63,645 nt of DNA from Gammaproteobacteria bacterium. Lineage in GTDB: Bacteria > Pseudomonadota > Gammaproteobacteria > Pseudomonadales > Azotimanducaceae. A program made the position numbers and the translations under genes. The DNA lies in NCBI GenBank assembly GCA_009843635.1, contig VYDB01000078.1:1-63645 (forward strand). The letters run 5' to 3'. The notes beneath the pieces are model-generated. The model was not told the origin of the DNA and did no database searches. It was given only the letters and a program-made list of their open reading frames with translations. Position 1 is the stretch's first letter, and every line of letters starts with the position of its first letter. Below, piece after piece: positions 8,909 to 59,405 of this stretch.

Positions 8909-9023
8909 TGCAGTAGCGCACCGGGCAATCGACGCCCCTCCCATACAGATCCTCAAAGCGCACAACAAAGCGGTTTCCGAAGAATGAACCGGGTCGCCTC
9001 CCGTGACACCCGGCAGGAATGAA

Positions 9024-9053: not shown

Positions 9054-9071
9054 TCTCAAGGCCGCCCGAGC

Positions 9072-10589: not shown

Positions 10590-10666
10590 GTGTTGGAATG
10601 CCGGACTCGAACCAGCAACCACCAGTTCCCAGACTGGAGCTCTACCCTATTGAGCTAATTCCCTGC
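10590..10666 (-). tRNA. tRNA-like element, apparently degenerate (Trp/Pro-like cloverleaf with defects). Possible pseudo-tRNA or integration remnant
   Basis: The reverse complement reads AGGGAAT-TA-GCTCAATAGGGTAGAGC-T-CCAGT-CTGGGA-ACTGG-TGGTT-GCTGG-TTCGAGT-CCGGC-ATTCCAA-CA. The D-arm and the T-arm (GGTTCGAGTCC) are canonical. The anticodon loop is only 6 nt, and acceptor positions 1-2/71-72 are A·A mismatches. Confidence 0.45.
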
Positions 10667-37821: not shown

Positions 37822-39101
37822 CCGACGATGCGACTCTGCGGCGAAAAGCTGACATCCGTCGCTCTCATGGAGATATATCTACGTGGCCAGGAACCTTCAA
37901 TATCGGCCTCAAACTCCTTTGGTCTTGAATCACAGGTATCGGATTTGACTGTCAGGAACATTGAAACATCCTCGCAGAAAACTGCATCTGGCCAATCATC
38001 CTCTGACTCAAAGAAAAGCCTACGGAGTTGGTCATTTGCATCCAGCTTGGGCCACCAGAAGCATGGTGATGGCGTCCAACAGCTAGAATGGAATTCGGCT
38101 TCCTTGACATATCTCTCATACAACACTTTATCTAGTCCGTAGGGCGGCTGCCTTTCCTTAATGGCGTCATTCCACGCTGACAGTTCGCTAGCTGTCCCGC
38201 CAAGAAGGTGCGGCATTCTAGACAAGAGGTGAGGAAGATCAATCAGGACGTCTTGTGGTGCCAGGACCTCCCTACGTAGCCATCGGTCGAGTTCTGCTGA
38301 AGCAACGCGCGAAATTGCTCTCACCGCCAACGGTACGTCGTCGTTAGCAAGACTCAAGAGATCGTCCCTCATCTTAGGCGGAAGTGAACGGTTGATTTTG
38401 AAGAAGTCTCGAAACGTAACGGATCGCACCCCCTCATCATTAGCCGTTGGGCCTAAGGCTCCCTTTGCACGCCTTGACAGGTACTCTGTCGCGCTGTCTG
38501 GAAAATCCAAAGCCTCCCAGATCGAAGCATCGAGATTGTCGCGAACAAACGCGATCTGATCCCGCCTCTTTCCCGCAGCTTCGGGTAAACATGGCCAGTA
38601 CCAAGGGGCGAAGTCGGCATCGTAGGACTCTCGCCAAAGCCGGTGGTTAGAAAGGTGCTTCGTATTCAGTGCCAAGTCCGCTACGGATTCGTGGTCGCCG
38701 AACAAGTGACGTAGGTCGAAATCAACGTTTGGATTCTTGTTGAGAGAAACGATGTAGTCGATGTCCGTGAAGGCTCGAATGCGCCCAATGACCGATTCGG
38801 CTGTCAGCCGAACACCACCAAAGTCCAGTTCAGCGAGGTTGTTGTCAACAATAGCGAGTTCACAACCCGTCAGCTTCTTGCACATCACCTGTTGTTCAGA
38901 GTCGACTTTATCGAGCTGGAAAATTTTGTCCGTCGATCTAAACAGTTCCTCCAACGCTTGCTTGAGCCACTTACCGTGGAGCATATTCACTTCGCAATCT
39001 GACTCCTTGAGGTGGCGTTCAGCTCCTTCGCACCCCTCTTTACGATCGTCGCAAATCAATATCCTAGTTATCATGTCGTCATTCCTTCCAGGAAATCTCA
39101 A
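37818..39101 (-). CDS. Protein with a putative receiver (REC)-like N-terminal domain and a 300-aa C-terminal domain of unknown function (candidate effector)
   Basis: N-terminus MITRILICDDRKEG... (REC beta1 DD pair), later ...CELAIVDNNL (candidate phospho-acceptor Asp), ...YIVSLNKNP (Ser/Lys of beta4/beta5). Its start overlaps the upstream GHKL-kinase gene by 23 nt. Confidence 0.5.
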   Translation of the reverse strand: MRFPGRNDDMITRILICDDRKEGCEGAERHLKESDCEVNMLHGKWLKQALEELFRSTDKIFQLDKVDSEQQVMCKKLTGCELAIVDNNLAELDFGGVRLTAESVIGRIRAFTDIDYIVSLNKNPNVDFDLRHLFGDHESVADLALNTKHLSNHRLWRESYDADFAPWYWPCLPEAAGKRRDQIAFVRDNLDASIWEALDFPDSATEYLSRRAKGALGPTANDEGVRSVTFRDFFKINRSLPPKMRDDLLSLANDDVPLAVRAISRVASAELDRWLRREVLAPQDVLIDLPHLLSRMPHLLGGTASELSAWNDAIKERQPPYGLDKVLYERYVKEAEFHSSCWTPSPCFWWPKLDANDQLRRLFFESEDDWPDAVFCEDVSMFLTVKSDTCDSRPKEFEADIEGSWPRRYISMRATDVSFSPQSRIVG

Positions 39102-44613: not shown

Positions 44614-45402
44614 CTACGCCGCTACGCGATGCAGGAGCTTGCGCTTGAAGTCTTCGTGCGCCTCCAGCGACGAGATCATTTCACCGCCGACATCGGACAG
44701 CCTAGCGAGATCGGCTCTTGGGATCGCAGCCTGGTCTTCGAAGATAAGTATGGACTCGAAGCTGAGGTCGTGCCTGTGGAAGTGCGACAGCATGATCGTG
44801 GTGAGGCGTGCCTTGTCGCGGTTCGGGACGCCATAGAGAAACACCGGGTCACCTCTCTCTGCCTCAATGCGGTAGTCCACCAAGTAAGCTGACGCGTTGG
44901 GAACGGTAGGCACATGGTCACGTTCGGTTCGAGCCTCATCCACAAAACTGAAAAGGAGTTCAGCCAAGTCATCATAAAACGTGGAACCAACATTCGAGCG
45001 CGACAGCAGCGTCAGGTCGTAAACTCGAGTCAGGGCTTGCCCGAAGGTGAAGACCGCTTCGGGCAAGCGTTCCGGTGCCGTATCAAGGCAGAGCACGCCC
45101 CGGTCTCCGTCCCAGCTCAAGCCGGTTTCCCCCATAATTCGCTCAAGCAGCATTCCCCGCGTTCCATCCAAAAACGAATCCACTTCGTGGTCGTAGCTGA
45201 TATGCATCAGCGTGTGGCCACAGTCGGACAAGCGAAGCCCGCCCGCTGCCGACTCGGAAAGATGAATCGGATAGCGATCACCGTCAGGAAACGAAAAGTG
45301 CGTGCGCAACATCAAAGCGCCGTCCGGACGCTGGTCGATTCGCACGTCTTCGCAAAGACGGGCACAAAGCAGAGTTCGAAGCGCGTCGGTGTCTAGAGCC
45401 AT
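44614..45402 (-). CDS. Hypothetical protein (262 aa) interposed between res and mod
   Basis: ORF whose start codon shares 1 nt with the stop of the upstream 156-aa ORF (45402). No recognised motifs. Confidence 0.5.
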   Translation of the reverse strand: MALDTDALRTLLCARLCEDVRIDQRPDGALMLRTHFSFPDGDRYPIHLSESAAGGLRLSDCGHTLMHISYDHEVDSFLDGTRGMLLERIMGETGLSWDGDRGVLCLDTAPERLPEAVFTFGQALTRVYDLTLLSRSNVGSTFYDDLAELLFSFVDEARTERDHVPTVPNASAYLVDYRIEAERGDPVFLYGVPNRDKARLTTIMLSHFHRHDLSFESILIFEDQAAIPRADLARLSDVGGEMISSLEAHEDFKRKLLHRVAA

Positions 45403-46026: not shown

Positions 46027-49000
46027 CTAACTCACGTACTGTTGCTTGGATGGTAACCCAGTTTCGCGGCCTTCCAGCACAAAGCCATCCGCCAATGCGC
46101 ACTCGATAACGCGACCCAGTTCTTCCTCCAACTTGGCCGCCAAGTCATCCTGCATCGTGTGCACATCCCGCAACTCCACGAACGCCCACCGGCCATAGCA
46201 CCCATGCGCATTGACGCCCGGCACCCAATAGGTGTCCATGGTGTCCTTCTTGGCCTTGGCATCCTCGCCGCGATAGCCCTTGACCTCCAACACCAGATGC
46301 AAGGGACCATCGGCATCCTGTCCGTCGTCGATCAGGGCAATGAAGTCCGGGATGTACCTGCGGGTCTCCCCGGCGAACGAATAGGGCACTTCAAAGCCAA
46401 GATTGTGGTTCTTCACCCAAGCCAACACACCGGTGTGCCCATCTAGGATGCGACACAGCTCCCCCTCCCAATCGCTGTCGAGGATTGCCCAGTTCAGATG
46501 GCACCGTCCACCGGCTTCCGCCTTGTAGCGCGAGGTTCGGGAAGTGGTGAAGTTGACGTGCCGGGTGGTGCCGGTCGGATTGAAGGGATCGAGCACGGCC
46601 TTCACGGGCTGGCGGTCTAGCTCAGCACGCGTGATTGCCGCCGAAATGCGCTCGCAGGCCATGTCCGCCAGATCAGCAATCATCAACTGCGCCGGACGGG
46701 TGTTGCCTTGGCAGATGAGGCATTCTTTAAGCCATTGCCCTGCGATGCGCTTCAACTGGCCAAACAAGTGCAGTTCCGGCTCGCCATTAGGATCGCGCCA
46801 GTGGTTGTACAGCAGCCTCAGAGTGAGGTGGTAGAGCAAGGCGCGCGGTCGTACACGATCCAGATGGTCCACAGTCAGATCGTGCCCTTGGCCGATGATG
46901 CCTTGGTTGTGGGTGATGGTCGGCCCCACTAGTTTCGGGGTGAGTTCCAATCGGGAATCCTCGGTGAAATCGGCGGTGAGCTGGTCGTCCGGCAGTTCCA
47001 CACGGTAGCCGGCCACTTGGGGGAAGCGGATTTCGGCATGGTCCCGCTCAGGCGAGAGCGCCTTCACCTGCACGGTCTCGGCGGGCTTTTGGGGTGGGGC
47101 GACCACTGGCTTGGCGGTGAAGTCGAAGGGGATGCCGAACACATCAGCATACTCGGCATCGAACAGGCCCTGTTCGTTGAGCGCGTATGACTGCCGGCGC
47201 AGGGAGCGGCCAATCACCTGTTCGCAAAGCAGTTGGGTGCCAAAGGCGCGCAGGCCGAGCACATGGGTGACGGTATTGGCATCCCAACCTTCGGTTAGCA
47301 TTGCCACTGAGACCACGCAGCGGATTCCACCTCCGAGGCGGCCAGCCTTGCCCACCGTGTTCATCACTTCGCGCAGCAGATCCTCGTCTTTGAGCTGTTC
47401 CGCCTGCTGGCGGTCACCCGTACGAGCGATGATTTCGCGGCGGAAGCGTTCGATTTCGTCGGCAGCGGCTGTGCGGAAGTTTCTGTCTAGGGCCTCGCCG
47501 GACTCGAGCTGGCGGCTGTCGATAAGTAAGGTTCGCGGCCTCGCCAGCGGTTCGCCCTGTTCATCAAAGTTGCGGAAGAGCGCAAGCCGCCCGTTGTGGA
47601 CAACTCGCTCGCCACTATCCGCTTCGCGTTCGAAGCCAGAGACGTAGTCGTACACCAGCTTCGAGGTTGCCGTGTTGTTGCATACTATGATGAAGCATGG
47701 TGGCACCTCGATTTTCGCCTCGTTCCAAAGGCGAAAAGTCTCCTCGTAGTGTCCGTAAAGCGCCTCCAAGGCCGTTTGCAGTTCCGGAGGCAGTTTCAAC
47801 GGGTCGAGTTGCGAACCAGCTCCCTTGCCCTTCTTCGGCATCTTCTTGCCGATATGCTCCCAAAGGTTGCGATACATCGGCATCTCATCGTCGGGCACGT
47901 TGTCCACCACTGGCACCCTCGGCAGTTTGACGATGCCGCACTCGATGGCATCCATCAGCGAGAAGTCGCTGACCGTCCAAGGAAACAGAGTGCCTTCCGC
48001 GTAGCCCGAACCGCGTAGGAAGAAGGGCGTTGCGGAGAGGTCGATCACCTTTGCTAGACCGAGCTGGCTTTGTGCCGCTTCGAGTCCTGATATCCACACC
48101 CGCGCCGCTTCTAGATTGCGTTCCGCCTCGCGGCGGTCGTCGCCGACCAGCTTGCCCTCATCGTCGTCACCGGGCTTTTCCCGATAGCAGTGGTGAGCTT
48201 CGTCGTTGAGGACGAGGATGCCTTTCATGGTCATGAGTTCGGGCATCACGCGGGCCAGCATCTGGCCTTCGGTTTCGCGGCTGGCAATCGCTGGCCCGCG
48301 ACCTTGGAGCAGCGCCCGGCTGCCCTTGGCGAGGTCCAACGTCTCGCGCAGTTGGAACGCATGGTAGTTGGTGATGACGATCTTGGCCTTGTCCAGTTCC
48401 CGCAGCATGTCGGCAGGCACCAGTTCGCGACTGGCGTAGTAGCTATCGGGGTCGTTGGGCTGGAGCACCCGCAGACGGTCGCGGATGGTGATGCCGGGCG
48501 CGACCACGAGGAAACCGCGGGTGAAGCGCGGGCTGTTCGGACGACGCACGGCGTTCACCGTCTGCCAAGCGATGAGCATGGCCATCACCGCAGTCTTGCC
48601 CGCGCCGGTAGCGAGCTTGAGAGCCATGCGCGACAGACCGGGGTTGGCCTGTTGGCTCGCGGCTTCGATCTGTTCCAGAAAGCGGCTGCCGCCCTTGCCA
48701 AGGCTGGGGGCAACCTCGGTAAGCCAGATTGCGGTCTCCACCGCCTCCACTTGGCAGAAAAATGGGCGGATGCCAGCGAACGGATGATGCCGCCAGTGCT
48801 TTAGCAACCGGGCAGTCTCAGGGGTCACCCGCCATTGCGCTTCGGGCAGCCCCCGCCACGCGGTGAGTTCCTGCCGCAGGCTATCGATTAACGCCGTCAG
48901 CTCGTACTGCTGGTCATCTGCATCAAGCGCTTGGCTCTGCGCGTCAAAGGCAAATTGATCCTGTACCTTTCCTCCCGCCTTGCGCGGCTTCGGAATTGGC

Positions 49001-49197
49001 GAGATGAATGAAACCTCGCGCCTGCCTTTGCCGATTGCGTCCGTCGGCTGCCGCCCCTCATCAAGCACCCAGTGCCGGGTCGGAACCTCGTAGGGAGAAT
49101 TGAGGATGGGGGATTGGTGAAAGGCATCCGGCATAGGGGGCATTTTAGCCGAAGGCTTGGAATCACGCTCTTGGCCAGCGCCACCGCGTGGTCCCAA
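46027..49197 (-). CDS. res: Type III restriction endonuclease Res subunit (SF2 helicase plus C-terminal PD-(D/E)xK nuclease)
   Basis: Helicase motif I LATGAGKTAVMAMLI, motif II VLNDEAHHC (DEAH), motif VI QVIGRSLRR. C-terminal nuclease IPDFIALIDD...LVLEVKGY. 1056 aa. Confidence 0.85.
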   Translation of the reverse strand: MGPRGGAGQERDSKPSAKMPPMPDAFHQSPILNSPYEVPTRHWVLDEGRQPTDAIGKGRREVSFISPIPKPRKAGGKVQDQFAFDAQSQALDADDQQYELTALIDSLRQELTAWRGLPEAQWRVTPETARLLKHWRHHPFAGIRPFFCQVEAVETAIWLTEVAPSLGKGGSRFLEQIEAASQQANPGLSRMALKLATGAGKTAVMAMLIAWQTVNAVRRPNSPRFTRGFLVVAPGITIRDRLRVLQPNDPDSYYASRELVPADMLRELDKAKIVITNYHAFQLRETLDLAKGSRALLQGRGPAIASRETEGQMLARVMPELMTMKGILVLNDEAHHCYREKPGDDDEGKLVGDDRREAERNLEAARVWISGLEAAQSQLGLAKVIDLSATPFFLRGSGYAEGTLFPWTVSDFSLMDAIECGIVKLPRVPVVDNVPDDEMPMYRNLWEHIGKKMPKKGKGAGSQLDPLKLPPELQTALEALYGHYEETFRLWNEAKIEVPPCFIIVCNNTATSKLVYDYVSGFEREADSGERVVHNGRLALFRNFDEQGEPLARPRTLLIDSRQLESGEALDRNFRTAAADEIERFRREIIARTGDRQQAEQLKDEDLLREVMNTVGKAGRLGGGIRCVVSVAMLTEGWDANTVTHVLGLRAFGTQLLCEQVIGRSLRRQSYALNEQGLFDAEYADVFGIPFDFTAKPVVAPPQKPAETVQVKALSPERDHAEIRFPQVAGYRVELPDDQLTADFTEDSRLELTPKLVGPTITHNQGIIGQGHDLTVDHLDRVRPRALLYHLTLRLLYNHWRDPNGEPELHLFGQLKRIAGQWLKECLICQGNTRPAQLMIADLADMACERISAAITRAELDRQPVKAVLDPFNPTGTTRHVNFTTSRTSRYKAEAGGRCHLNWAILDSDWEGELCRILDGHTGVLAWVKNHNLGFEVPYSFAGETRRYIPDFIALIDDGQDADGPLHLVLEVKGYRGEDAKAKKDTMDTYWVPGVNAHGCYGRWAFVELRDVHTMQDDLAAKLEEELGRVIECALADGFVLEGRETGLPSKQQYVS

Positions 49198-49454
49198 CGC
49201 CAGCCACCATCGGCTGAGCCGACATTCCGCTCCCAGAGAAGCGAGGGCGGGACGCCCTCGTCTCGAATCAAGGGAGTTCCATAGAGACCGGAATATCTAC
49301 GACAGAATTGTTGTACAACAACATCTTCGTAGAGTTTTTTTTTGACAACGCAGCTTGCTGAACGATCCGCACTAGGTGTGCGCACCAGCCGAAGGCATAC
49401 TGCCCCACTTGCCAACACCGTCCTACCGGACGTCCACTGAGGAGACCCGAGGTC

Positions 49455-50539: not shown

Positions 50540-51985
50540 ATGACTGATCCCTTCGCCACCGCCATCGAAGTCGCCGCCGCCATTCGCAACAAGGAGGCGA
50601 GTTCCTTGGAACTCACCGACATGTACATCGAGCGTGTCGAGCGCTACGACGGTCAAACCAACGCCGTGGTCGTGCATGACTTTGAACGGGGCCGGGAGGC
50701 AGCCAAGGCCGCTGACGCGGCATCGGCGCGCGGGGATGCGGCCGGCCCGCTGCACGGCGTGCCGATGACGGTCAAGGAAGCCTTCAACGTCCAAGGGCTG
50801 CCGACCACCTGGGGCATTCCGGAACTGCGCGACAACATCGCCGCAGAGGATGCCGACTACGTCCGCCGCTTGAAGGGCGCAGGCGCCGTCATCTTCGGCA
50901 AGACCAACGTGCCGCTGAATCTGGGCGACTTCCAGAGCTTCAACGACATCTACGGCACCACCAACAACCCCTGGGACCTGACGCGCACCCCTGGCGGTTC
51001 GTCGGGCGGCTCCTCGGCAGCCCTGGCGGCAGGACTGACCGCCCTGGAGGCGGGCTCGGACATCGGCGGCTCCATTCGCAATCCCGCCCACTACTGCGGC
51101 ATCTATGGCCACAAGCCCACTTGGGGCATCGTTTCCGACGAAGGCCATGCCCTACCCGAGATGCTGGCACCGGCGGACATCGCGGTGGTCGGCCCCATGG
51201 CGCGCAGCGCGGAGGATTTGGCGCTGTCCATGGACATCGTGGCTGGCGCTGGGCGCACGGACCGGGCCGGCTGGCAACTGAATCTGCCGCGCCCCGCCAA
51301 GGGCAGCTTAAGCGACTTCAAGGTGGCGATTTTGCCCAACCACGATCGCGCCCCAGTGGCGACGGAGATGGCCGATCGGGTGCAGCAGGTGGGCGACCGC
51401 TTGGCACGGCTCGGCGCCACGGTGAGCGACAGCGCGTTCCCCAAAATCGACGTGAACGCAGCTTTCGAAGCCTATCTGAGCCTGCTCTGGGGCGTGATGG
51501 CAGCAGGCCTCTCCGAAGAGGAGAAAGAAGAACTCAGGCTGGCACGTTCGGCGGAAGTGGAAGGCGAGGAGGTGCCCGCCTCATTGGCCCGCTTCGGCGT
51601 CCAGGAGCACGGCGAGTGGCTCAAGTTCGACAACCTGCGCTTCGGCCTGCGCAAGGCTTGGCAGGCGTTCTTCCAAGACTGGGACATCCTCATCTGCCCC
51701 CAAGTGGCCACCACCGCCTTCCCCCACGACCATGGCGAATACCTGGAACGGCGGATCATGGTGAACAACGAATCCCAGAACTACTTTCAGCAGGTGTTCT
51801 GGGCCGGAATGATCACCGTCGCGCACCTGCCGAGCACGGTCTTCCCCACCGGGCCGTCGAAGGACGGCCTGCCCATCGGCCTGCAGGCGGTGGGCGCGGA
51901 GTTCAACGACTACACCACCATCGAGTTCGCGCGACTGATGGCCCAAGAGCTGGGCGGCTTCGTCGCGCCTCCCGACTATCCCTAG
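50540..51985 (+). CDS. Amidase (amidase-signature family, GatA-like)
   Basis: AS signature GGSSGGSSAALAAGLTALEAGSDIGGSIRNPA with the Ser-cisSer-Lys catalytic region. 481 aa. Confidence 0.85.
   Translation: MTDPFATAIEVAAAIRNKEASSLELTDMYIERVERYDGQTNAVVVHDFERGREAAKAADAASARGDAAGPLHGVPMTVKEAFNVQGLPTTWGIPELRDNIAAEDADYVRRLKGAGAVIFGKTNVPLNLGDFQSFNDIYGTTNNPWDLTRTPGGSSGGSSAALAAGLTALEAGSDIGGSIRNPAHYCGIYGHKPTWGIVSDEGHALPEMLAPADIAVVGPMARSAEDLALSMDIVAGAGRTDRAGWQLNLPRPAKGSLSDFKVAILPNHDRAPVATEMADRVQQVGDRLARLGATVSDSAFPKIDVNAAFEAYLSLLWGVMAAGLSEEEKEELRLARSAEVEGEEVPASLARFGVQEHGEWLKFDNLRFGLRKAWQAFFQDWDILICPQVATTAFPHDHGEYLERRIMVNNESQNYFQQVFWAGMITVAHLPSTVFPTGPSKDGLPIGLQAVGAEFNDYTTIEFARLMAQELGGFVAPPDYP
51876..51985 (+). 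repeat. Direct repeat copy 1 (attL-like): the native 3' end of the amidase gene, duplicated at 56304..56413
   Basis: About 110 bp, tcggcctgcaggcggtgggcgcggagttcaacgactacaccaccatcgagttcgcgcgactgatggcccaagagctgggcggcttcgtc...ctatccctag. It is roughly 95% identical to the second copy. Confidence 0.8.
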
Positions 51986-52176
51986 TCTGCAAGTCAAAGC
52001 GGTTGCTTCCCGAGTTGGCCGCTTCCGTTTGCGGAGACGCCAACGACCTTTTCCTCTAGCTGAGATGAGTTAGACGACAGGATTTGAATTCAAACTGGGT
52101 TGGTGCTGCCGATGAAGGCCGCTGCTGCGACCTCGCCGGGAGACATGGAACTGGCCAGCCCCGTTATACGCCCCTG

Positions 52177-52204
52177 TTGACGTAAGTTGAAATAGACGTA
52201 TTAT
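52177..52204 (+). promoter_or_regulatory. Near-consensus sigma70 promoter (TTGACG-16 nt-TATTAT) with a GGAGG RBS 8 nt before the ATG at 52226
   Basis: ttgacg taagttgaaatagacg tattat, then ggaggctaagact ATG. Confidence 0.55.
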
Positions 52205-52225
52205 AGGCGCCCGGAGGCTAAGACT

Positions 52226-53395
52226 ATGCAAATAAACCCCGGGGGACGCTTAAACACCCAAGAAGTAATGGGGCGTGATCGAGAAATCGCTCGATACTGG
52301 GACATTCTTGGGCGCCAAGGGCTGGTCCTCTCCGCCGAGCGGCGGATAGGCAAAACCCACATCGCGCTGAAGATGAGGGACGAGTGCGGTCCCCGCTATC
52401 TACCCTTCTATCAGGATCTTGAGGGCGTTCATTCCATCAACGAGCTGATCAGATCCATATATGACACCGTTCGCCAGTCCCTAGCCACGGCACCGAGGTT
52501 CAAGGCGCGCTTAGCCACGTGGTCCACGCTGCTTCCGGACCGCATTGGCGGCATCGATATCCCAACTGGCAGCAGGAATTGGCAAATTTTGCTCGCCACC
52601 GCATTTGATGATCTCATCAACATCTCGGAGGACAAGATCATTCTAATGCTCTGGGATGAGTTTCCCCTAATGCTGCACAACCTGCAACGCCGGGAAGGGC
52701 CTGACTCCGCAATTGAGTTGCTTGACCATCTGAGAGCGCTTCGCCTTGCCCACTCCAACCGGCTCCGCTTCCTCTACACCGGCTCCATCGGCCTCCACCT
52801 TGTTCTTCGTTCGCTGCGAAAGGCGGGAAATGCCAACGATCCGGTCAATGACATGCATTCTGCTACGGTTCCGCCAATGACCCATCGAGATACCTGCGAC
52901 CTCGCCGCAGCGCTGCTCAAAGAGACCCTTGCTCCGTCTGACCTCGTTTCGACTCTAGCCTCGCTGGTTGCGGAAGAGGTCGGAGGCTTCCCCTACTACG
53001 TCCACCATGTGGTGGACCAACTGCATCAGCTTCGTCGCCCCATTACGCCTGATGACATAGTGTCCGCCGTCGGTGGTCTCATCCACGACCCACACGATCC
53101 CGCTAATTTCCAATACTACGTCAACCGGCTGTCAGCGTATTACGATGCCGCTGACAGGGGAGTGACTCTGATGGTGCTCGACACCATGGCGGGGCTTGAG
53201 CAGGCAGCGCCTGTTTCACAGTTGGTCAATCTATGCAGGCACCGCGATCCATCCCTAACGGAAGAGTACGTCCGGGAAGCACTAAAACTCATGGCGGAAG
53301 ACCACTACGTCACACTGAAACGAACTAAAGGCGGGTTGGTCTACGATTTTCGATGGCAACTTGTCAAACGATGGTGGAAGGAAACGCGGCTGTGA
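52226..53395 (+). CDS. AAA/arch-type ATPase (PF01637-like ATP-binding protein), first gene of the inserted module
   Basis: Walker A-like RRIGKTHIAL, Walker B-like ILMLWDEFP. 389 aa. Its stop overlaps the start of the downstream gene (GTGA). Confidence 0.65.
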   Translation: MQINPGGRLNTQEVMGRDREIARYWDILGRQGLVLSAERRIGKTHIALKMRDECGPRYLPFYQDLEGVHSINELIRSIYDTVRQSLATAPRFKARLATWSTLLPDRIGGIDIPTGSRNWQILLATAFDDLINISEDKIILMLWDEFPLMLHNLQRREGPDSAIELLDHLRALRLAHSNRLRFLYTGSIGLHLVLRSLRKAGNANDPVNDMHSATVPPMTHRDTCDLAAALLKETLAPSDLVSTLASLVAEEVGGFPYYVHHVVDQLHQLRRPITPDDIVSAVGGLIHDPHDPANFQYYVNRLSAYYDAADRGVTLMVLDTMAGLEQAAPVSQLVNLCRHRDPSLTEEYVREALKLMAEDHYVTLKRTKGGLVYDFRWQLVKRWWKETRL

Positions 53396-56289
53396 GAGAA
53401 GGCATCCTGCGCAGCTCTCGCTACAGCCCCGGCAACATGGACCGGGAATCCCTTGAAGCTCTCTTCGTGGGTCGAGAAGAGGTAATGCAAGACGTGCTTT
53501 CCCGCGTTGTGGCCTCCTTGGAGCAGCCGGACAAGCACTACATTCTGTTAGTCGGACCGCGAGGATCCGGCAAGACGCACTTTTTGGCCCTCGCGTACCA
53601 CCGCATCATGGACAGCATCAAGGCAGCCCGCTTGGAGAACAAGACAACGGTTGCCCTTCTCAAAGAAGAGGAATGGGGAGTTGCATCATATCTCGACCTG
53701 CTGGTCCGCATCTTGAAAGCACTGGCAGAACAGTCACCGGAGATTAGGGCGGAAGTGCCACGGATATACGAAGAGTTCACCCGTGACCCCGCCAAGGCCG
53801 AGAATCTCGCGGCATCATTGCTCCGTCAACATACACAAGGCAAGACGCTTCTGTTGCTCTGCGAGAACCTCGTCGATCTGTTTCAAGGACTGGATTTGGA
53901 AGGACAGATGCGCTGGCGAGCGCTCATCCAAGAAAGCGGTAACTGGTCCATCCTAGCCACCACGCCGACGCTGTTTACCGCACTCCAGCTACAGGACAAT
54001 CCCTTTTATGGTTTCTTCACAATACGCGAACTGAAGCGGATCGACTTCGATTCAGGGCTGGCACTACTTACCAAAAAGGCTCTTCATGAAGAAAAGCCGG
54101 AATTGGCTCGATTCTTGGGCACGCCGCTCGGCCGTGCGCGAGTTCGAGCTATTCATCACCTCGCCGCTGGAAACCACCGGGCCTACGTCGTTCTGTTCGA
54201 CTTCCTAGACAAAGAGTCGCTCGATGACCTCGTTGGCCCATTCATGCGCTTGATCGATGACCTCACGCCTTACTACCAAGATCGAATTCGCCAAGTCCCA
54301 CCCGCCCAGAGGAAAATCGTGGAATTCCTTTGTTTGGAGTCCAACCCCAGGCAGGTCAAGGAGGTCGCCGCAGCGTGCCTGATGTCCCAGCAAACCACCG
54401 CAAAACAAGTCGGCGAGCTTGACGCCGCCAGATTCGTCAGCCGAATACGCCGCGGTCGCAATACATATTGCGAAATTTCCGAGCCATTGATGAGGATCTG
54501 CATCGAAGTGAAAGACAACAAGGCAAGCCACTTCCGCTTGTTTGTTGAGCTCCTTCGCCACTGGTTCAGCAATCGAGAACTTGAACGACGTGTTGCTGCA
54601 CTTCGGCACGACGAACACCGCAGCCGTCTTGACCAAGTCCACCTTGAGCAAGCGGTTGAGCTTCATTTGGCAGATGGCCGCCAGCCATTCATCGAGATAT
54701 TGCATGCTGAAGCCGAGCGATGCTTGGATGCTGGCGATTATCCGGGTCTCGCGGCAGTGCAAGCCACTCTAGTTCGCGAAGGCGGGTCCGACCACGACTA
54801 TCGACTGTGGGTCTTTGCCCTTGTTCAGGCGGAAGACAGCCAATCGGCGATATCTGCCATCGAGCAAGCGGGAGAAAGATGTCTAGATGATCCTTTGCAC
54901 TTGCACAACGTTGCAATGGCCTATGCGATAGAAGGCCGACCGGGCGAGGCGCTCTTCTACGTCGACCGAGCCCTCGGGCTGGACCTTGATTCGGAAGATC
55001 AGGCAGCGCACTTGTGCCTCCAAGCAGACCTCTTCCGCGATCTTGGGCATCTCGACGAGGCGATTGAAGCCGCCGAGGCCGTGCTGAAGATTGATCCAGC
55101 CCATTGGCACAGCTTTGAGCAAATCATCCCAGCTCTCACCACTTTGGAGCGCCATGAGGATGCAACAGCTCGTATGGCAGATTTTGTCCAGCTCGCACAA
55201 GGTGACTTCGATGGTCTACTCGCTGCATCAAGGCTCGCCGAAGATCAGGGATGGCTGGAGGACGCTCTCAGCTCGGTCGAAGCGGCGTTAGCCATTGAAC
55301 CCGAAAGCACCAATGCACATCAATTGCGGGGCAATCTGCTTCTCGAACTGGAGAACTACCAGATCGCATGCGAGGTGTTCCGAGAGATCATCTCCCGCGA
55401 TCCCGACTCCGTCTCTGCCCATTGCAGGTTGGCCGACGCGCTGGCGTTGGCAAAGGACTTTGAAGGGTCCGCACTGGCTGCAAAACATCTCATTGAATTG
55501 GACTCCGATCACACCCACGCTTACTTTGCGAGAGGGCGGGCGTTGATTGAGCTAGGTCGAACTGATGAGGGCATCTCCGTTCTGGATCATCTTTTGGCCA
55601 CCGACGACTACCACTCGCTCGTGCTCGCAGCGGAGGAGTCAAGGCTGGTTGGCGAATATTCTTCGGCGAAGAGGCATCTTGATCGGGCTGCGGAATTGGA
55701 GCCGGACAATCCCGAACTCTGGATCGAACGCACTCGCCTTGGGATTGACTTAGGAGACTTCGACTCCGCCATCGCCAGCGCCACAAAGTTGGAAGCGATC
55801 ACCTCTAGCGCAATTCCTGCACGCCTACTCAGAGCACAGGCTCAAGCGGGCTCCACACCGCTGTCCGAGGTTATCAGCGACCTTGAGACCGACCTCGTTC
55901 TTAAGGATGTCCACGATCAAGACGCTTTGGGCAGAGTAGTCTCTATCATGCTTGCAGTCTCGGTGCGCCAATTCGGCGCCAAGTATCTTCATCAAGGTAT
56001 TGTGAAGCTGCGAGAATTGTTCGGCGACGCGATGGGGCAGGGGGTTGTTGGCAATATTCTGGTTGACTTCCTCCACCAAAACACTGCCGACTTTGAAGGG
56101 CCTCTTGAAGACTGGGAGGAGTGCTTGGACAAGCTGGCTAGATCGCTAGCTGACCTGCCAGAATGTTCGATTCCCATCAAAATGCTGAACGCCGCAGTGA
56201 GATCTGTAAAGACCGGCGACAAGAACCACTTGTTGACGCTACCACTTGAGCAACGGCAGCTTCTGGAAGAGAACTTGTTCAGCACTTAA
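53392..56289 (+). CDS. STAND-type P-loop NTPase with C-terminal TPR repeat array (about 965 aa)
   Basis: Walker A LLVGPRGSGKTHFLALAY, Walker B LLLCENLVD. Multiple TPR-like helices in the C-terminal 450 aa (e.g. AHQLRGNLLLELENYQIACEVFREIISRDPDSVSAHCRLADALALAKDFEGSALAAKHLIELD). Likely GTG start at 53392, or ATG at 53353. Confidence 0.7.
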   Translation: MREGILRSSRYSPGNMDRESLEALFVGREEVMQDVLSRVVASLEQPDKHYILLVGPRGSGKTHFLALAYHRIMDSIKAARLENKTTVALLKEEEWGVASYLDLLVRILKALAEQSPEIRAEVPRIYEEFTRDPAKAENLAASLLRQHTQGKTLLLLCENLVDLFQGLDLEGQMRWRALIQESGNWSILATTPTLFTALQLQDNPFYGFFTIRELKRIDFDSGLALLTKKALHEEKPELARFLGTPLGRARVRAIHHLAAGNHRAYVVLFDFLDKESLDDLVGPFMRLIDDLTPYYQDRIRQVPPAQRKIVEFLCLESNPRQVKEVAAACLMSQQTTAKQVGELDAARFVSRIRRGRNTYCEISEPLMRICIEVKDNKASHFRLFVELLRHWFSNRELERRVAALRHDEHRSRLDQVHLEQAVELHLADGRQPFIEILHAEAERCLDAGDYPGLAAVQATLVREGGSDHDYRLWVFALVQAEDSQSAISAIEQAGERCLDDPLHLHNVAMAYAIEGRPGEALFYVDRALGLDLDSEDQAAHLCLQADLFRDLGHLDEAIEAAEAVLKIDPAHWHSFEQIIPALTTLERHEDATARMADFVQLAQGDFDGLLAASRLAEDQGWLEDALSSVEAALAIEPESTNAHQLRGNLLLELENYQIACEVFREIISRDPDSVSAHCRLADALALAKDFEGSALAAKHLIELDSDHTHAYFARGRALIELGRTDEGISVLDHLLATDDYHSLVLAAEESRLVGEYSSAKRHLDRAAELEPDNPELWIERTRLGIDLGDFDSAIASATKLEAITSSAIPARLLRAQAQAGSTPLSEVISDLETDLVLKDVHDQDALGRVVSIMLAVSVRQFGAKYLHQGIVKLRELFGDAMGQGVVGNILVDFLHQNTADFEGPLEDWEECLDKLARSLADLPECSIPIKMLNAAVRSVKTGDKNHLLTLPLEQRQLLEENLFST

Positions 56290-56303
56290 ATGCGACCTTC
56301 CAG

Positions 56304-56413
56304 TCGGCCTGCAGGCGGTGGGCGCGGAGTTCAACGACTACACCACCATCGAGTTCGCGCGACTGATGGCCCAAGAGCTGGGCGGCTTCGTCCCGCCGCC
56401 TGACTATCCCTAG
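56304..56413 (+). repeat. Direct repeat copy 2 (attR-like): duplicate of the amidase 3' end, including the in-frame ...DYP* terminus
   Basis: Sequence match to 51876..51985 with a few substitutions (cgtcccgccgcctgactatccctag versus cgtcgcgcctcccgactatccctag). Confidence 0.8.
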
Positions 56414-56441: not shown

Positions 56442-59405
56442 TCACAACGCCACCTCCAACGAAATCTGCACGCGCCGGGGCATGAAGTGGCTGCGCGCCT
56501 CCCCGAATTCCGCATCATCCACGAAGGGGTTGATGTTGTAGCCGGTCTGCCGGTCGAAGACGTTGAAAACATCGACGCGCACCTGCGCCCTGGTGCCACG
56601 CGGCAGGCTGAAGCGCTGCGCGTAGCTGAGGTCAAGCTGCCAGTGGTTGGGGCTGCGCCTTCGGCCAGCCCGCTCCGCATAGCGATTGGCATCGGAAAAG
56701 TAGGACGGCAGGCCGTAGGCAGCCGCATCCCATGCCTCCCAAGGCTGGCCGGACTGGTAAACGAGATAGGCACCGAACACGGCCTGCCAAGGCAGCGCGT
56801 AGTGGCCAAACGCCTTGAAGACGTGGGGGCGGTCGCCGCGAAGGACGCCGTCCTTGCGGTCCCAAAGCTGCCGGCCGTAGCCGTCGGCCAGGTTCGACGA
56901 GCCGATGAAGCGGTTGGCATCGTTGACGCTGCTGGTGTTGTCCTGGTCGAAGTTGCCGGTGTAGCGGCTGCGGGCATAGGAAGCGTTGAGGGTGCCGCGC
57001 TCGCCGAGCCACTCCAATTCCACGACGGCCTCCCAGTACTTGGTGTAGGCGCCGTCGAGCTGGGCGATGACGTAGCTGGAGCCGCCAATTTCGGCGCGGA
57101 TGGCGTCTAGATCCGGAACGTAGGGGCCCTTGGCGGCAATGTCCGGCGGCGCATTGTCGTAGGCCTCCCGGGAATGGTTCCAAGTGTCCTCCCAAAAGCG
57201 GCTGCCCTTGCGGTGGCGCAGATGGGTCCGGAGCCTGATGCCATCGCCGAGCCTGTGAGTGGCGCCCAGGATCCACTCGTCCACCCGGCGCGGCTTTATG
57301 CCGCCTTGGAAGGCCTTGCCCGAAGACCCGGCCAGGGGTGCATGGGAGATGATGCGCCCTTGCTCGTCAAACAGCACGCGAAGGCTCGCCCGGGTGTTCC
57401 GGTCCCAAGAGGCGGCGCGGGCCAGTGAGCTGGCTTGGGGATGGTAGCGGGCAAAGCTGAGATAGGCTTGGCCTTGGTCGTTGTACGTCCACGCGATGCT
57501 CAGCCGCGGCTGGATCATGTCCGCCCAAGGGATGGTGCGCATCCGGTACTTGGTTCCGGGTGACCGCTCGAAGCCCGAATAGCTGTCATCCACCCGCCGC
57601 AAGCCTTGGCCGTAAAGCACGTCCTGGCTGACCAGCACGCCCAAGTTGGTGGTGAAGCGGCCGAGGCTGATGCGGTCGTTCAGCTCAATGCCGTAACTCT
57701 CAATCGCTGAGCGGATGGGGCCAACCAAGGCGCCGTCGCGCTGGGCGAGGCTCATCTGCTCCACGGCCGCCGTGTAGAAGATGGGAGTGCCGTCCGCCGC
57801 TTGATCCACGCCGCCCGGCACCTCGATGGCACCCCAACCGTTGGATGCGCGGCGCAGGGACTCCCGCCCCTCGGACCAGCGAAAGCCGGCGTGCAGGCTG
57901 TGGCGGGCGTCGCCGATGCGCAGTTCCCGGTCCAAGGTGACTTCTACGCCTTGGTTGAAATAGTTGCCGTCGCCGATGCGGGCGTAGGCGCCAACGGCAC
58001 CGCCGCCAACCGGGTTGCCGGACGCATCCAAGTACCCGTAGCGGTCGATCAGCGGCTGCACCCTGGCGTTGTAGGCATCCGCTCCGGGCACTGCTTGGGG
58101 CACGTTCAGGTAGCCCATCTGATCCAGGTTGCCCACGTCCAAGACGCCATCCAAGCGGGGTTCGACGCCGAGCAGCACATCCGGCCGCTCGCTCCCGCGC
58201 AGCGCGTAGTCGAAGTACTGGAAGCCGAGGGTGGTGATGGCGTCAATCTGCCAGGAGCCGTCCAGGCTGAGGATTTCCTGTTCAGAGCGTTCGCCCACGG
58301 AGACTGAATCCGCCTCAAAGAGACCAACGGACACGCCTTGGTCCTTGCGCGTTGAAGTGCGGTAGCTGCCGTTGAACAGCAGGCGCTCGGTGGGCGCGAA
58401 AGTCAACTTGCCAAAATACTCGTCGCGACGGCTGCGGTAGTCCTTGACCGGGCCATAGGCGGTGGCCTTGTTGTTGCGATCCTGAGTGGGCCCGAAGTAG
58501 GAGCCGTAGAAGAACAGCCGTTGCGGCAGCAGCGGGCCGCCCGCCGTTACGGTGGTCCAGGCTTGGCGGGTGTCATGCTTGGCGCCGTTGCGGCGCTTCG
58601 CCACCAGCCCCTCGGGTTGGTAGCGGTACTCGACGCTGGCCGAGAACCGATCGGTGCCGGAGCGGGCCTTGGAATCCATGGCGAAGCCGCCGCTGCGATT
58701 GAAGCCCACCGCATCGGCACCGCCCCGTTCAAACACCACCTGTTCGATGTCGTGATTGGAGGGTTCCGCCGAAAGGGTGCCGAACAGCGGCAACGACAGG
58801 TCCGCGCCATCAAAGTGATAGGTGTTGTCCTGCCCGCTGCCGCCGGCACTCGGCCCGCGCACCCCATCCTCGGTGTACTGCACGCCCGGGGCGAGCTTCA
58901 CTAGGTCGCGAAAGCCCCTTCCGACGGGCACGCCGAGCACCACGTCCGATCCCAAGGCGTTACTGAGCGACGCCCCGCCTCGGTCGCCGAGGCGCTGAGC
59001 GACCACTTGAAGCTCCTCAATTGAGTCGGCTTGCGTGGCTTGCGCATCCTCTAGCGCCAAGTTGACCACGGCGGTTTGATAGAGCAGAACATTCACAGCG
59101 ACGGATGGGGCATCGGCCTCCTGAGCCACGATTCTCAGCAAATAGGCGCCGGGAACCAGCATTGGCAGCCGGTAACGCCCTTCGGCATCCGTGACCGCGG
59201 TGCGCGGACGCGGCATGAGCGCGCTGCGCGCCTCGACGGCAACCCCTCCTTGGGGCGCGGCGTTCGAGGTGACAACGCCCTCGATGCCCCCGGTCTGCTG
59301 GCCCCATGCGCTGGCCGCAGATAACCAGCCGCCAATAAGGCAGGCAAGCGCGACAACCCAGCTTTTGACTGTATTTTGACGGAGCAAGCGCAGGCGCTGC
59401 CTCAA
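56442..59405 (-). CDS. TonB-dependent outer-membrane receptor with N-terminal carboxypeptidase-regulatory-like domain
   Basis: Signal peptide MRQRLRLLRQNTVKSWVVALACLIGGWLSAASAWG. CarbopepD_reg-like GVVTSNAAPQGGVAVEARS...TDAEGRYRL. A long beta-barrel region rich in Y/G/N. 987 aa. Confidence 0.75.
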   Translation of the reverse strand: MRQRLRLLRQNTVKSWVVALACLIGGWLSAASAWGQQTGGIEGVVTSNAAPQGGVAVEARSALMPRPRTAVTDAEGRYRLPMLVPGAYLLRIVAQEADAPSVAVNVLLYQTAVVNLALEDAQATQADSIEELQVVAQRLGDRGGASLSNALGSDVVLGVPVGRGFRDLVKLAPGVQYTEDGVRGPSAGGSGQDNTYHFDGADLSLPLFGTLSAEPSNHDIEQVVFERGGADAVGFNRSGGFAMDSKARSGTDRFSASVEYRYQPEGLVAKRRNGAKHDTRQAWTTVTAGGPLLPQRLFFYGSYFGPTQDRNNKATAYGPVKDYRSRRDEYFGKLTFAPTERLLFNGSYRTSTRKDQGVSVGLFEADSVSVGERSEQEILSLDGSWQIDAITTLGFQYFDYALRGSERPDVLLGVEPRLDGVLDVGNLDQMGYLNVPQAVPGADAYNARVQPLIDRYGYLDASGNPVGGGAVGAYARIGDGNYFNQGVEVTLDRELRIGDARHSLHAGFRWSEGRESLRRASNGWGAIEVPGGVDQAADGTPIFYTAAVEQMSLAQRDGALVGPIRSAIESYGIELNDRISLGRFTTNLGVLVSQDVLYGQGLRRVDDSYSGFERSPGTKYRMRTIPWADMIQPRLSIAWTYNDQGQAYLSFARYHPQASSLARAASWDRNTRASLRVLFDEQGRIISHAPLAGSSGKAFQGGIKPRRVDEWILGATHRLGDGIRLRTHLRHRKGSRFWEDTWNHSREAYDNAPPDIAAKGPYVPDLDAIRAEIGGSSYVIAQLDGAYTKYWEAVVELEWLGERGTLNASYARSRYTGNFDQDNTSSVNDANRFIGSSNLADGYGRQLWDRKDGVLRGDRPHVFKAFGHYALPWQAVFGAYLVYQSGQPWEAWDAAAYGLPSYFSDANRYAERAGRRRSPNHWQLDLSYAQRFSLPRGTRAQVRVDVFNVFDRQTGYNINPFVDDAEFGEARSHFMPRRVQISLEVAL

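Follow-up and report, generated by a model that had tools for sequence, protein, structure and literature searches.

Two neighbouring genes for P-loop NTPases lie between two copies of the end of an amidase gene in the window (the whole stretch of DNA that was analysed, 63,645 nt), which raises the question of how they came to be there and what they do. The original prediction saw in this arrangement a site-specific integration and, in the two genes, a likeness to antiviral STAND sensors. The follow-up analysis favours a paired STAND conflict system, a sensor with its partner, that regulates its own expression and moves horizontally. As to the anatomy, an inserted island whose cassette is autoregulated and holds two obligately paired STAND genes is very likely; that the pair serves as a conflict or defence sensor is given a probability of about 0.5.

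An old island at the end of the amidase gene

The insertion site is made up of the following features.

50540..51985, + strand: amidase gene, the insertion target (PF01425, E 1.5e-98; NCBIfam PRK06170, E 6e-182); the left repeat copy makes up its final ~121 bp
51865..51985, + strand: left direct-repeat copy, the functional amidase 3′ end (repeat alignment and comparison with relatives)
51986..52128, + strand: non-coding DNA at the left end of the island, remnant of a deleted 776-aa gene (alignment to relative L005)
56293..56413, + strand: right direct-repeat copy, a non-functional amidase 3′ end contiguous with the native downstream flank (matches relative L006)
56442..59405, − strand: TonB-dependent-receptor-like outer-membrane gene, the native right flank of the site (CarboxypepD_reg and OMP_b-brl_4)

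Direct repeats of about 110 bp had been proposed at the amidase 3′ end, and their alignment bears this out. Positions 51876-51985 and 56304-56413 are identical at 107 of 110 positions (blastn E 1e-52), with all three mismatches within the last ~25 bp, and the repeat can be extended to 121 bp when more mismatches are allowed (51865-51985 and 56293-56413, 94%). The right copy begins 4 nt past the TAA of gene 2 (56287-56289). Between the repeats lie 4.4 kb with a GC content of ~0.56, 9 points below the ~0.65 of the flanks. Gene 1 and gene 2 are the sole open reading frames of this insert; as foreseen, no integrase or any further ORF is found there.

The amidase gene is syntenic across relatives L005-L012. 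In the closest of them, L006, whose flanks are 94-96% identical to the window at the nucleotide level, the amidase stop lies ~35 bp from the end of the TonB-receptor gene, a clean empty site. The receptor gene also follows the amidase directly in L008. The expected empty site thus exists, and insertion is supported.

Comparison with these relatives also points to the origin of each repeat copy. The 3′ portion of the left copy encodes GFVAPPDYP before the stop, and its post-stop sequence, TCTGCAAGTCAAAGCGG, agrees with the island-bearing L005 and L007 and not with the empty site of L006. The right copy (GFVPPPDYP before the stop) and its flank agree with the native amidase end and flank of L006. 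Judged by these matches, the 3′ portion of the left copy, together with the post-stop sequence, arrived with the island, and the right copy is the displaced original amidase end. Since the incoming DNA brought its own copy of the amidase end, the gene stayed intact while the original end moved to the far side of the island; the proposed reconstitution of the amidase 3′ end thereby holds.

The island is occupied in three versions, those of the window, L005 and L007, the latter two from more distant relatives than L006. L005 and L007 hold an extra third gene of 776 aa (ORF 7452-9782 in L005). Window positions 51986-52082 align with L005 7362-7460, leading into this ORF, so that the 240-bp left non-coding part of the insert retains a ribosome-binding site and the first codons, with the start ATG changed to ACG at 52074-52076; the remainder of the gene is absent. 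By this alignment, the window has deleted the third gene after the island was gained, and the island, now 4.4 kb, originally measured about 6.9 kb. The 776-aa gene was considered as the missing recombinase or effector and rejected, as it matches only a 2OG-Fe(II)-oxygenase-like domain and is unlinked to the pair elsewhere.

Between lineages, the island has diverged as much as its flanks (87% versus 85-92%), so its integration is not recent. An identical deletion has cut the right repeat copy to 28 nt in both L005 and L007. Compared with L006, the two copies in the window have derived bases in common. Gene conversion or a later exchange is implied, so the copies cannot simply be taken for the original att products. 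The region 51865-56413 is thus an old island that entered the amidase 3′ end through recombination inside the ~121-bp segment. Entry could have relied on a lost or trans-acting integrase, or on a RecA-type single crossover with a donor fragment, either circular or anchored. Precise excision by recombination between the repeats could in turn account for the clean empty site in L006. The present data fit either an ancestral island with loss in L006 or lateral gain.

The original prediction of attL and attR sites therefore stands in part, with target-derived repeats and an empty site but no recombinase in the window, L005 or L007. A classical integrative element would have used a tyrosine or serine integrase, since lost or acting in trans, to recombine an attP bearing the amidase 3′ end with attB. 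Such elements are classically recognized by target-gene 3′-end repeats, an empty site and a foreign GC content, and all three are present. Having already deleted one island gene, the window could plausibly have lost others. A second, independent bracketed case (L096) likewise carries a 33-nt repeat from the 3′ end of a flanking gene. However, none of the three occupied versions holds a recombinase, their one extra gene being the oxygenase-like gene above, and the L096 repeats enclose just ~90 nt plus both genes, leaving no room for an integrase. The repeats also differ in length (121 versus 33 bp), and the cassette ends share no conserved core sequence. A classical integrative element is accordingly a possible but doubtful account.

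The window and L096, although independent insertions, have a common geometry: repeat, promoter, gene 1, gene 2, 4 nt, repeat. Significant bracketing repeats were found only in these two among ~16 independent contexts, so that a general target-duplicating mobility mechanism is not established. The idea that the cassette repeatedly targets this amidase was rejected, since the one found in L092 lies 8 kb from the pair and is an unrelated paralogue.

A self-contained pair of STAND genes

The cassette itself comprises four features.

52167..52200, + strand: predicted conserved operator, TACGCC-N6-GACGTAAGTT-N6-GACGTA, agreeing with the family consensus at 19 of 22 specified positions
52177..52204, + strand: sigma-70-type promoter inside the operator, TTGACG (−35), 16 nt, TATTAT (−10), 10/12 to consensus
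52226..53395, + strand: gene 1 (protein A), minimal STAND/PF01637-type NTPase of 389 aa, with an NTPase, a helical domain bearing GGFPYY and a C-terminal winged helix
53392..56289, + strand: gene 2 (protein B), STAND NTPase with TPR, 965 aa (profile searches, structure model and homologue alignment)

Protein A is organized as an NTPase, a helical domain with the GxP motif and a winged helix, the module order of the STAND superfamily, and has neither a sensor nor an effector domain. It had been described as a PF01637-like ATPase with an RRIGKT motif. The Walker A (AERRIGKT, with K43) and the fold agree with this description, but the protein remains below the PF01637 gathering threshold: distant relatives reach 20-33.5 bits, the cutoff being 33.2, and the window protein has no Pfam match. 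The modelled fold is PF01637/CED-4-like, in agreement with solved PF01637 members, and the model superimposes on the NB-ARC modules of NRC, CED-4 and Apaf-1. Its predicted structure also resembles ORC/Cdc6 and TnsC, and the winged helix, as modelled, resembles those of the Fur, ArsR and MarR repressors.

Sequence and profile searches of Pfam, NCBIfam, PADLOC, PHROGs and the PDB returned no match for protein A. Its family nevertheless spans about 1,500 clusters at 50% identity, from Proteobacteria to Firmicutes, and no Pfam, NCBIfam or PADLOC model represents it; eight of 60 divergent relatives weakly match the PADLOC candidate PDC-S27. In one relative the protein is joined to a domain of the SAV_2336/vWA type, which belongs to the vWA-MoxR conflict-system family.

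Protein B was correctly recognized as a STAND P-loop NTPase of ~965 aa with GPRGSGKT and a long TPR C-terminus. It runs from an NTPase and helical domain through a winged helix (~aa 301-395) to TPRs (~446-820) and an all-helical C-terminal domain (~821-965), so that it has both the P-loop Walker A/B and the helical and winged-helix domains followed by a repeat-type sensor that define STAND proteins. The Walker A (GPRGSGKT, with K61) and Walker B (LLLLCEN) motifs are invariant across 32 homologues. In Walker B, Cys occupies the usual Asp position and Glu is retained, which makes the hydrolytic activity of B uncertain. The AAA_16 match (E 3e-6) lies below the Pfam cutoff, and a MarR/ArsR-like winged HTH at aa ~317-380 is weak and below curated thresholds (MarR_2, E 0.005; HTH_metalloreg, E 6e-7). 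The TPR families match at E 1e-15 to 1e-22. The AF2 model shows a high-confidence TPR solenoid and a low-confidence NTPase region, with only helical repeats and the helical C-terminal domain outside the NTPase; fold and PDB profile searches retrieved TPR scaffolds only.

The absence of an obvious effector domain, noted at the outset, was upheld by HMM and fold searches of both proteins: Pfam, NCBIfam, PADLOC and the structure models gave no enzymatic effector (nuclease, protease, SIR2 or TIR), and neither protein has a nuclease, recombinase, transposase or primase fold. In PADLOC-DB 2.0, protein A has zero matches and protein B only weak wHTH or TPR matches. As the original prediction had it, the pair matches no described system in PADLOC, Pfam, NCBIfam, PHROGs or the PDB sequences. 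No two-ATPase or paired bacterial STAND system matching the cassette was found in the literature.

The two genes are tightly associated. The GTG start of gene 2 (53392) overlaps the TGA of gene 1 by 4 nt (GTGA), confirming the proposed translational coupling. A gene 2 homologue lies immediately downstream of gene 1 in 32/32 loci inspected, down to ~22% identity (the window, L007, a set of 26 loci mapped jointly, four others and two plasmids with ~22% identity). Fusion of the pair is occasional, as in the natural A-B fusion P0387 (E 6e-53). This fusion and the translational coupling suggest that A and B may hetero-oligomerize.

Upstream, the near-consensus promoter attributed to the pair is present (TTGACG-16-TATTAT, 10/12). 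Its position is conserved across loci, and a ribosome-binding site (GGAGG) follows at 52213-52217. Over it lie palindromes of the GACGTACGTC type, the operator family consensus being TACGTC-N6-GACGTACGTC-N6-GACGTA. These 10-bp palindromes at 16-bp spacing are iteron-like and adjoin the ATPase gene. Of the 23 loci that bear the pair and include upstream sequence, 20 agree with this consensus at 18-22 of 22 positions, and the agreement persists where the proteins are only 34-45% identical. Background scores from random 130-nt stretches of the window are mostly 10-11 and, away from the cassette site, never exceed 15; the sole strong site in the 63.6-kb window is thus the cassette's own.

Operator-promoter, gene 1 and gene 2 form a self-contained cassette of 4.1 kb that moves as a unit between unrelated sites. 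In unrelated contexts, nucleotide homology begins 61-78 nt upstream of gene 1 and stops near the gene 2 stop; two loci (L001 and L107) are 98% identical until 3 nt beyond that stop and unrelated thereafter. The cassette occurs at unrelated sites in many genomes, with different neighbouring genes in every independent locus, its distribution is patchy, and it moves horizontally. A phage or plasmid origin was rejected: there are no relatives in IMG/VR or the phage collection, and only six distant matches among 72,556 plasmid records.

Variation of the putative sensor and the possible function of the pair

The conflict-system reading draws on the variability of the TPR region and on the genomic neighbourhood, besides the weak PDC-S27 matches, the vWA-type fusion and the absence from phage collections noted above. 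Mean identity of protein B to its relatives is 73% over aa 1-395 versus 48% in the TPR and C-terminal regions. In two syntenic loci (L096 and L099), protein B is ~96% identical over aa 1-420 and only 37-57% identical, without gaps, over aa 421-720. Synonymous differences are saturated in this divergent part (pS 0.67-0.82 versus 0.2-0.4), which together with the low identity indicates that a deeply divergent TPR allele was swapped in; the recombination breakpoints in this pair of loci fall at aa ~420 and ~745. In at least 6 of ~18 independent contexts, the cassette has neighbours such as RM, Mrr, an OLD-like ATPase with DUF4276, PLD, HEPN, PIN toxin-antitoxin pairs, an MmeI-type enzyme, Qat remnants and IS elements, and the window carries an RM island at 34.7-49.2 kb. 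Among the 95 neighbour ORFs of 10 metagenome loci, housekeeping genes predominate, and PADLOC gave nothing beyond generic kinase and MkoA matches; the association with defence islands is therefore inconsistent, and strong enrichment is not claimed. The missing effector domain, the Cys in Walker B, the low-confidence model of the NTPase region of B and the rarity of bracketing repeats also count against the reading.

In the proposed mechanism, the winged helix of A and/or B would, at rest, occupy the three palindromes of the GACGTACGTC type that cover the −35 and −10 elements and so keep expression low. The TPR array of B, the variable and allele-swapped part of the protein, would act as the ligand sensor. 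Ligand binding would then free NTP-dependent oligomerization of B with A, as in a sensor-plus-helper NLR pair. Because neither protein has an enzymatic effector, the output would be the A-B hetero-oligomer itself, which might engage DNA through its winged helices in an ORC/Cdc6-like manner or recruit a host factor, leading to a block of the invader or to cell arrest. Specific DNA engagement as the output is a tentative and rather unlikely proposal. Bolder still, and a long shot, is a bacterial counterpart of sensor-plus-helper NLRs that needs no enzymatic effector, in which the swappable TPRs of B would capture the ligand and an ORC-like DNA-engaging ring of A and B would itself be the output, blocking replication or transcription of the invader or host. 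In a radical variant of this proposal, both ATPases and the GACGTACGTC repeats would additionally drive recombinase-free insertion of the cassette at gene 3′ ends.

A signal-sensing transcription regulator of the MalT/AfsR type, whose TPRs sense a metabolite or protein and whose winged helix binds DNA and controls host genes, is improbable. The original prediction had named a DNA-binding HTH in gene 2 as the mark of such a regulator. A MarR/ArsR-like winged helix is indeed present in B (below curated thresholds), next to a repressor-like one in A and a palindromic operator, conserved even in distant relatives, at the promoter of the cassette itself; many loci lie among metabolic genes, and an effector domain is lacking. 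However, the winged helix of B sits at the canonical STAND position, Pfam and NCBIfam detect no LuxR/GerE HTH, OmpR-type wHTH or genuine BTAD output domain, and no regulon accompanies the cassette, as neighbours differ wholly between loci. These three observations argue for autoregulation. The only high-scoring operator in the window likewise belongs to the cassette, the next best reaching 15/22, and both the patchy, horizontal distribution and the exchange of deeply divergent TPR alleles between syntenic relatives would be unusual for a housekeeping regulator.

More improbable still is a selfish element, in which ORC/Cdc6-like ATPases and tandem palindromes would serve as initiator and origin, or a TnsC-like DNA-targeting ATPase would act with its sites, so that a circular form is maintained or inserted at gene 3′ ends without a conventional recombinase. 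The modelled similarity of A to ORC/Cdc6 and TnsC, the iteron-like palindromes beside the ATPase gene, the identical geometry of the two independent insertions and the abrupt end of homology between L001 and L107 all fit such an element. Yet nuclease, recombinase, transposase and primase folds are missing from both proteins, the palindromes overlap the sigma-70 promoter as simple autoregulation predicts, and the family is essentially absent from plasmids. Bracketing repeats in just 2 of ~16 contexts, and an unrelated third gene that once placed the left end of the window island away from the cassette end, also speak against it.

An ancient local or tandem duplication with two resident, immobile chromosomal genes, which the original prediction had set as its alternative and with which the equal divergence of island and flanks agrees, can practically be set aside, being contradicted by the clean empty site of L006, the GC of the insert and the unrelated sites occupied in many genomes.

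The paired STAND conflict system thus remains the preferred reading, and the cassette may well be a hitherto undescribed immune sensor made of two proteins and lacking an effector. Should it act in defence, it would be a very widespread STAND/NLR-like immune module missed entirely by current annotation and defence-finding tools. Two of its features are undescribed for bacterial STANDs, the obligate sensor-less STAND partner and the lack of an enzymatic effector; they raise the questions of whether sensor/helper NLR pairing has arisen in bacteria and how a STAND oligomer can signal when no effector is fused to it. Its small size and conserved operator make the cassette easily cloned and assayed. 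The insertion is ordinary biology, yet it provides a well-documented occupied/empty pair at a variable hotspot beside an RM island.

Comparison with known systems

Integrase-borne islands with att sites at the ends of tRNA or protein genes share with this island the target 3′-end repeats, an intact target, foreign GC and empty sites in relatives. The island differs in being old, with apparently homogenized repeats, and in lacking an integrase or excisionase, as do its two relatives in L005 and L007.

The PF01637 (ATPase_2) archaeal ATPases, such as P. abyssi PABY2304 (2qen) and S. solfataricus SSO1545 (2fna), resemble protein A, which lies below the family threshold. The gene 1 family differs in being bacterial, strictly paired with a TPR-bearing STAND and equipped with a conserved operator. 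We know of no established function for PF01637 proteins.

MalT and AfsR (SARP) likewise combine a STAND NTPase, a TPR-like sensor and a DNA-binding element, and the operator of the cassette suggests sequence-specific binding here as well. In contrast to them, the cassette has no LuxR-type C-terminal HTH, no OmpR-type N-terminal domain with BTAD and no linked regulon; its winged helix is the intrinsic STAND/ORC one, and it consists of two proteins rather than one.

Avs and the bacterial NACHT/NLR-like proteins are closer in architecture, with a P-loop STAND NTPase, a winged helix and a long TPR-like sensor. They also share a sensor far more variable than the NTPase core, horizontal movement and a frequent location in defence islands. 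The Avs/NLR-like architecture originally proposed therefore holds for the STAND-winged helix-TPR arrangement, a likeness of sequence and modelled structure, but not for the Avs effector or the Avs HMMs, as the cassette matches no Avs or other PADLOC model. To our knowledge, every characterized Avs/bNACHT system has an effector domain; the cassette has no N- or C-terminal enzymatic effector (nuclease, protease, SIR2, TIR) and differs further by its obligate sensor-less STAND-type ATPase partner and its own conserved operator. Triggers of Avs families have been sought by co-expressing them with libraries of phage genes and scoring toxicity (PMC13581612).

The paired NLRs of plants and animals (sensor NLR plus NRC helper; NAIP-NLRC4) show no specific sequence kinship to the pair, and eukaryotic helpers have an executioner domain (CC, CARD) that protein A lacks. 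The relationship is one of architecture and fold only: in both, two related STAND NTPases are encoded side by side, one with ligand-sensing repeats and one without.

Direct repeats and the proteins they enclose

The end of the amidase gene recurs downstream of a two-gene insert. Positions 51876-51985 and 56304-56413 are identical at 107 of 110 positions (blastn E 1e-52), far above chance level, and the direct repeats of about 110 bp proposed in the original prediction are therefore real. The three mismatches of this core all fall within its last ~25 bp, and the match reaches 121 bp if more mismatches are allowed. The copies enclose just two ORFs of plausible length, in DNA with a GC content of ~0.56 versus ~0.65 in each flank. 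The gene 2 stop codon precedes the start of the right copy by 4 nt.

51865-51985, left repeat copy (3′ end of the amidase gene, + strand)
52177-52204, promoter TTGACG-16-TATTAT
52226-53395, gene 1, 389 aa
53392-56289, gene 2, 965 aa; its GTG start overlaps the TGA of gene 1 (GTGA)
56293-56413, right repeat copy

Both the translational coupling and the insert's own promoter are present as proposed. Gene 1 encodes a bare STAND/PF01637-type module of NTPase, helical and winged-helix parts, with no sensor and no effector. Its motifs are AERRIGKT (Walker A), LMLWDEF (Walker B) and GGFPYY, and its C-terminus resembles Fur-, ArsR- and MarR-type winged helices in Foldseek. The proposed likeness to PF01637 holds for fold and superfamily, although the Pfam threshold is not reached. 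The gene 2 product carries a Walker A motif, GPRGSGKT, a Walker B motif, LLLLCEN, in which Cys replaces Asp, and a MarR/ArsR-like winged helix at the canonical STAND position. Its predicted model has a confident TPR solenoid followed by an all-helical C-terminal domain, and fold and profile searches with the gene 2 product returned TPR proteins alone. As anticipated, no effector domain is present in either product, be it nuclease, protease, TIR, SIR2, transmembrane or of another kind. A nearly invariant peptide precedes each NTPase domain, MQINPGGxL in gene 1 (aa 1-9, 52226-52252) and SRYSPGNM in gene 2 (aa 9-16, 53416-53439), both modelled with low confidence.

Insertion, age and route of entry

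Relatives were found with the amidase protein as query in a scan that took a single genome for each species. Those with synteny are sponge- or marine-associated Pseudomonadales MAGs, 'Ca. Azophilus' among them. The expected empty site exists: in the closest relative (L006, flanks 94-96% identical to the window at the nucleotide level), the amidase stop codon lies ~35 bp from the end of a TonB-receptor-like gene, and a second relative, L008, likewise lacks both genes. Four others (L009-L012) carry different genes directly 3′ of the amidase, so that this side is a variable spot. REP-like GC-rich palindromic repeats (e.g. ...CGAGGGCGGGTCGCCCT...) occupy the intergenic DNA next to the amidase of relatives (L008 11446-11595, including the 155-bp spacer at its empty site; L005 5661-5814).

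The two copies differ in origin. The right copy and its downstream flank agree with the native amidase end and flank of L006, and it encodes ...GFVPPPDYP*, as do all relatives. The left copy terminates in ...GFVAPPDYP*, and the sequence after its stop codon is shared with L005 and L007, two relatives bearing the island at the same site. The right copy is thus the displaced original end, and the left copy owes its 3′ part to the incoming island. In both L005 and L007, the right copy is trimmed to an identical 28 nt, which suggests that one ancestral event lies behind both. Identity of the island between the window and these relatives (87%) falls within the range of the flanks (85-92%), so the island is old rather than newly acquired. 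The window's two copies are 97% alike, versus 95% and 91% to their L006 orthologues, and share derived bases, which implies gene conversion or later exchange between them.

In L005 and L007, a 776-aa gene sits between the amidase and gene 1 (7452-9782 and 6954-9281, respectively), the only loci where it is seen beside the pair. Its sole domain match is an N-terminal 2OG-Fe(II)-oxygenase-like region; the C-terminal region is Cys-rich, and a PHROG search gave no match. The window retains its ribosome-binding site and first codons (~52056-52095), with ATG changed to ACG at 52074-52076 and a deletion thereafter. The ancestral island was thus ~6.9 kb long and held three genes.

Insertion duplicated the target's 3′ end, with the new end supplied by the incoming DNA. 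The geometry is supported by a second independent case, L096, where a 33-nt repeat comprises the 3′ end of a flanking gene including its stop codon; one copy begins 4 nt past the gene 2 stop codon and the other stops 89 nt short of gene 1. None of the other ~14 contexts checked keeps a bracketing repeat. In agreement with the prediction that the island lacks an integrase, no recombinase is found in any version (window, L005, L007). Possible routes are an integrase that was lost or acts in trans, a circular form entering by a Campbell-type single crossover, and homology-facilitated illegitimate recombination. Recombination between the repeats would excise the island precisely, which fits the empty site of L006.

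A widespread cassette with its own operator

The cargo is a discrete and widespread two-gene cassette. At least 533 close homologues share 65-71% identity with gene 1, almost all of them with a length of exactly 389 aa, and an exhaustive search yields 1,507 clusters at 50% identity. Conservation is similar for the homologues of gene 2 (~972 aa, 57-60% identity). A gene 2 homologue lies immediately 3′ of gene 1 in 32 of 32 loci inspected, usually with the 4-nt overlap, and plasmids from Moraxella osloensis and Clostridium tagluense keep the pairing even where identity has dropped to ~22%. The family was not found in IMG/VR or among 50,697 phage records. Gene 2 also occurs in short forms of 596-610 aa that have no TPR array and keep the N-terminal half and C-terminal domain. 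Two rare fusions came from the representative search. P0387 (1150 aa) is a natural gene 1-gene 2 fusion (E 6e-53) with a non-TPR C-terminal region, and P0378 (932 aa) joins a SAV_2336 N-terminal/vWA-type domain (DxSxS motif) to a gene-1-like ATPase. The latter domain presumably belongs to the vWA-MoxR conflict-system family. That family is described in PMC7159879.

Between unrelated contexts, nucleotide homology starts 61-78 nt upstream of gene 1 and stops near the gene 2 stop codon; L001 and L107, for instance, are 98% identical to 3 nt beyond that stop and unrelated further on. Operator-promoter, gene 1 and gene 2 therefore make up the unit that functions and moves. Conservation of the ~60-90 nt upstream of gene 1 extends to genomes whose proteins are just 34-70% identical. 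Among the 23 loci with enough upstream sequence, 20 match the pattern TACGTC-N6-GACGTACGTC-N6-GACGTA at 18-22 of 22 specified positions; low scores occur in L103 (15) and L105 (13). The window's own site, 52167-52200, reaches 19/22; random 130-nt stretches of the window mostly give 10-11, with a maximum of 15 outside this site. The core is a perfect 10-bp palindrome, the repeat spacing is 16 bp, some loci have three or more copies, and the repeats overlie the -35 and -10 elements. No separate regulator gene accompanies the cassette, so the winged helix of one or both proteins presumably binds this predicted operator and autoregulates the cassette. Another long palindrome, TACGACAGAATTGTTGTACAACAACATCTTCGTA (49298-49331, between the ResIII gene and a luciferase-like gene), scores 15/22 and is probably an unrelated regulatory site.

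Distantly related second copies of the architecture lie a few kb at most from the pair or from its insertion site (L005 1-3285; L006 2-1141; L088 1897-6008; L089 101-4046). Each comprises an ATPase_2/AAA_22 protein of ~330-410 aa, then an AAA-MarR-type wHTH-TPR protein of 780-930 aa, which suggests a diversified superfamily with a tendency to cluster. In L005 and L006, such a pair stands where the window has ResIII. L108 and L109 are the same ~21-kb region, pair included, present twice on one 7.76-Mb contig (~0.40 and ~4.28 Mb), which reflects a large segmental duplication or else an artefact of assembly.

Possible conflict role and relation to known systems

Gene 2 evolves unevenly, its N-terminal half averaging 73% identity to relatives versus 48% for the TPR and C-terminal parts. 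The syntenic orthologues of L096 (5364-8213) and L099 (11161-14010) are ~96% identical over aa 1-420, 37-57% over aa 421-720 and ~85-90% past aa 745. The divergent segment is gap-free with saturated synonymous sites (pS 0.67-0.82 versus 0.2-0.4 elsewhere), and the remainder of the protein is 85-100% identical; a deeply divergent TPR allele of equal length, spanning the whole TPR segment, was thus swapped in by recombination. Immune receptors and specificity subunits typically show such exchange.

Depending on the locus, neighbours include Eco57I- and MmeI-type RM, Mrr, an OLD-like ATPase with DUF4276, PLD, HEPN, PIN toxin-antitoxin pairs, Qat remnants, TnpB and IS elements. In the window, two core genes separate the pair from a ~14-kb restriction-modification/defence island (34.7-49.2 kb) with GC below that of core genes:

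34729-35859, C5 DNA methylase
35816-37192, Eco57I-type methylase
37189-39101, two ORFs without a Pfam match
39079-41361, HATPase_c_3 protein
41657-44596, type III mod
44614-45402, DUF1828
46027-49197, ResIII helicase

As counter-evidence, ten metagenome loci have mainly housekeeping neighbours; the association with conflict genes is real, yet non-uniform. Two further links to conflict systems are weaker: the PADLOC candidate PDC-S27 weakly matches 8 of 60 divergent gene-1 relatives, and one relative is the vWA-type fusion P0378. Elsewhere in the window, a tRNA-like structure called by ARAGORN (10592-10664, - strand, undetermined two-base anticodon) is probably a spurious call or a decayed tRNA.

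By domain content and by linkage, the pair does not fit a MalT/AfsR-type regulator. Gene 1 matches no model in Pfam, NCBIfam, PADLOC or PHROG, and no description of such a two-ATPase pair was found in the literature searched, in line with the prediction that it matches no described system. The original observation is thus borne out, and its interpretation is supported in part: the pair is rated a putative STAND-based conflict system, paired, effector-less and presumably autoregulated, carried by an old genomic island of ordinary type. Avs and bacterial NLR-like STAND sensors are nearest in architecture, as proposed, but the effector-domain and HMM tests that define Avs are both negative, and the pair is therefore not classed as Avs. 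In concept, it comes nearest to the sensor/helper NLR pairs of eukaryotes.
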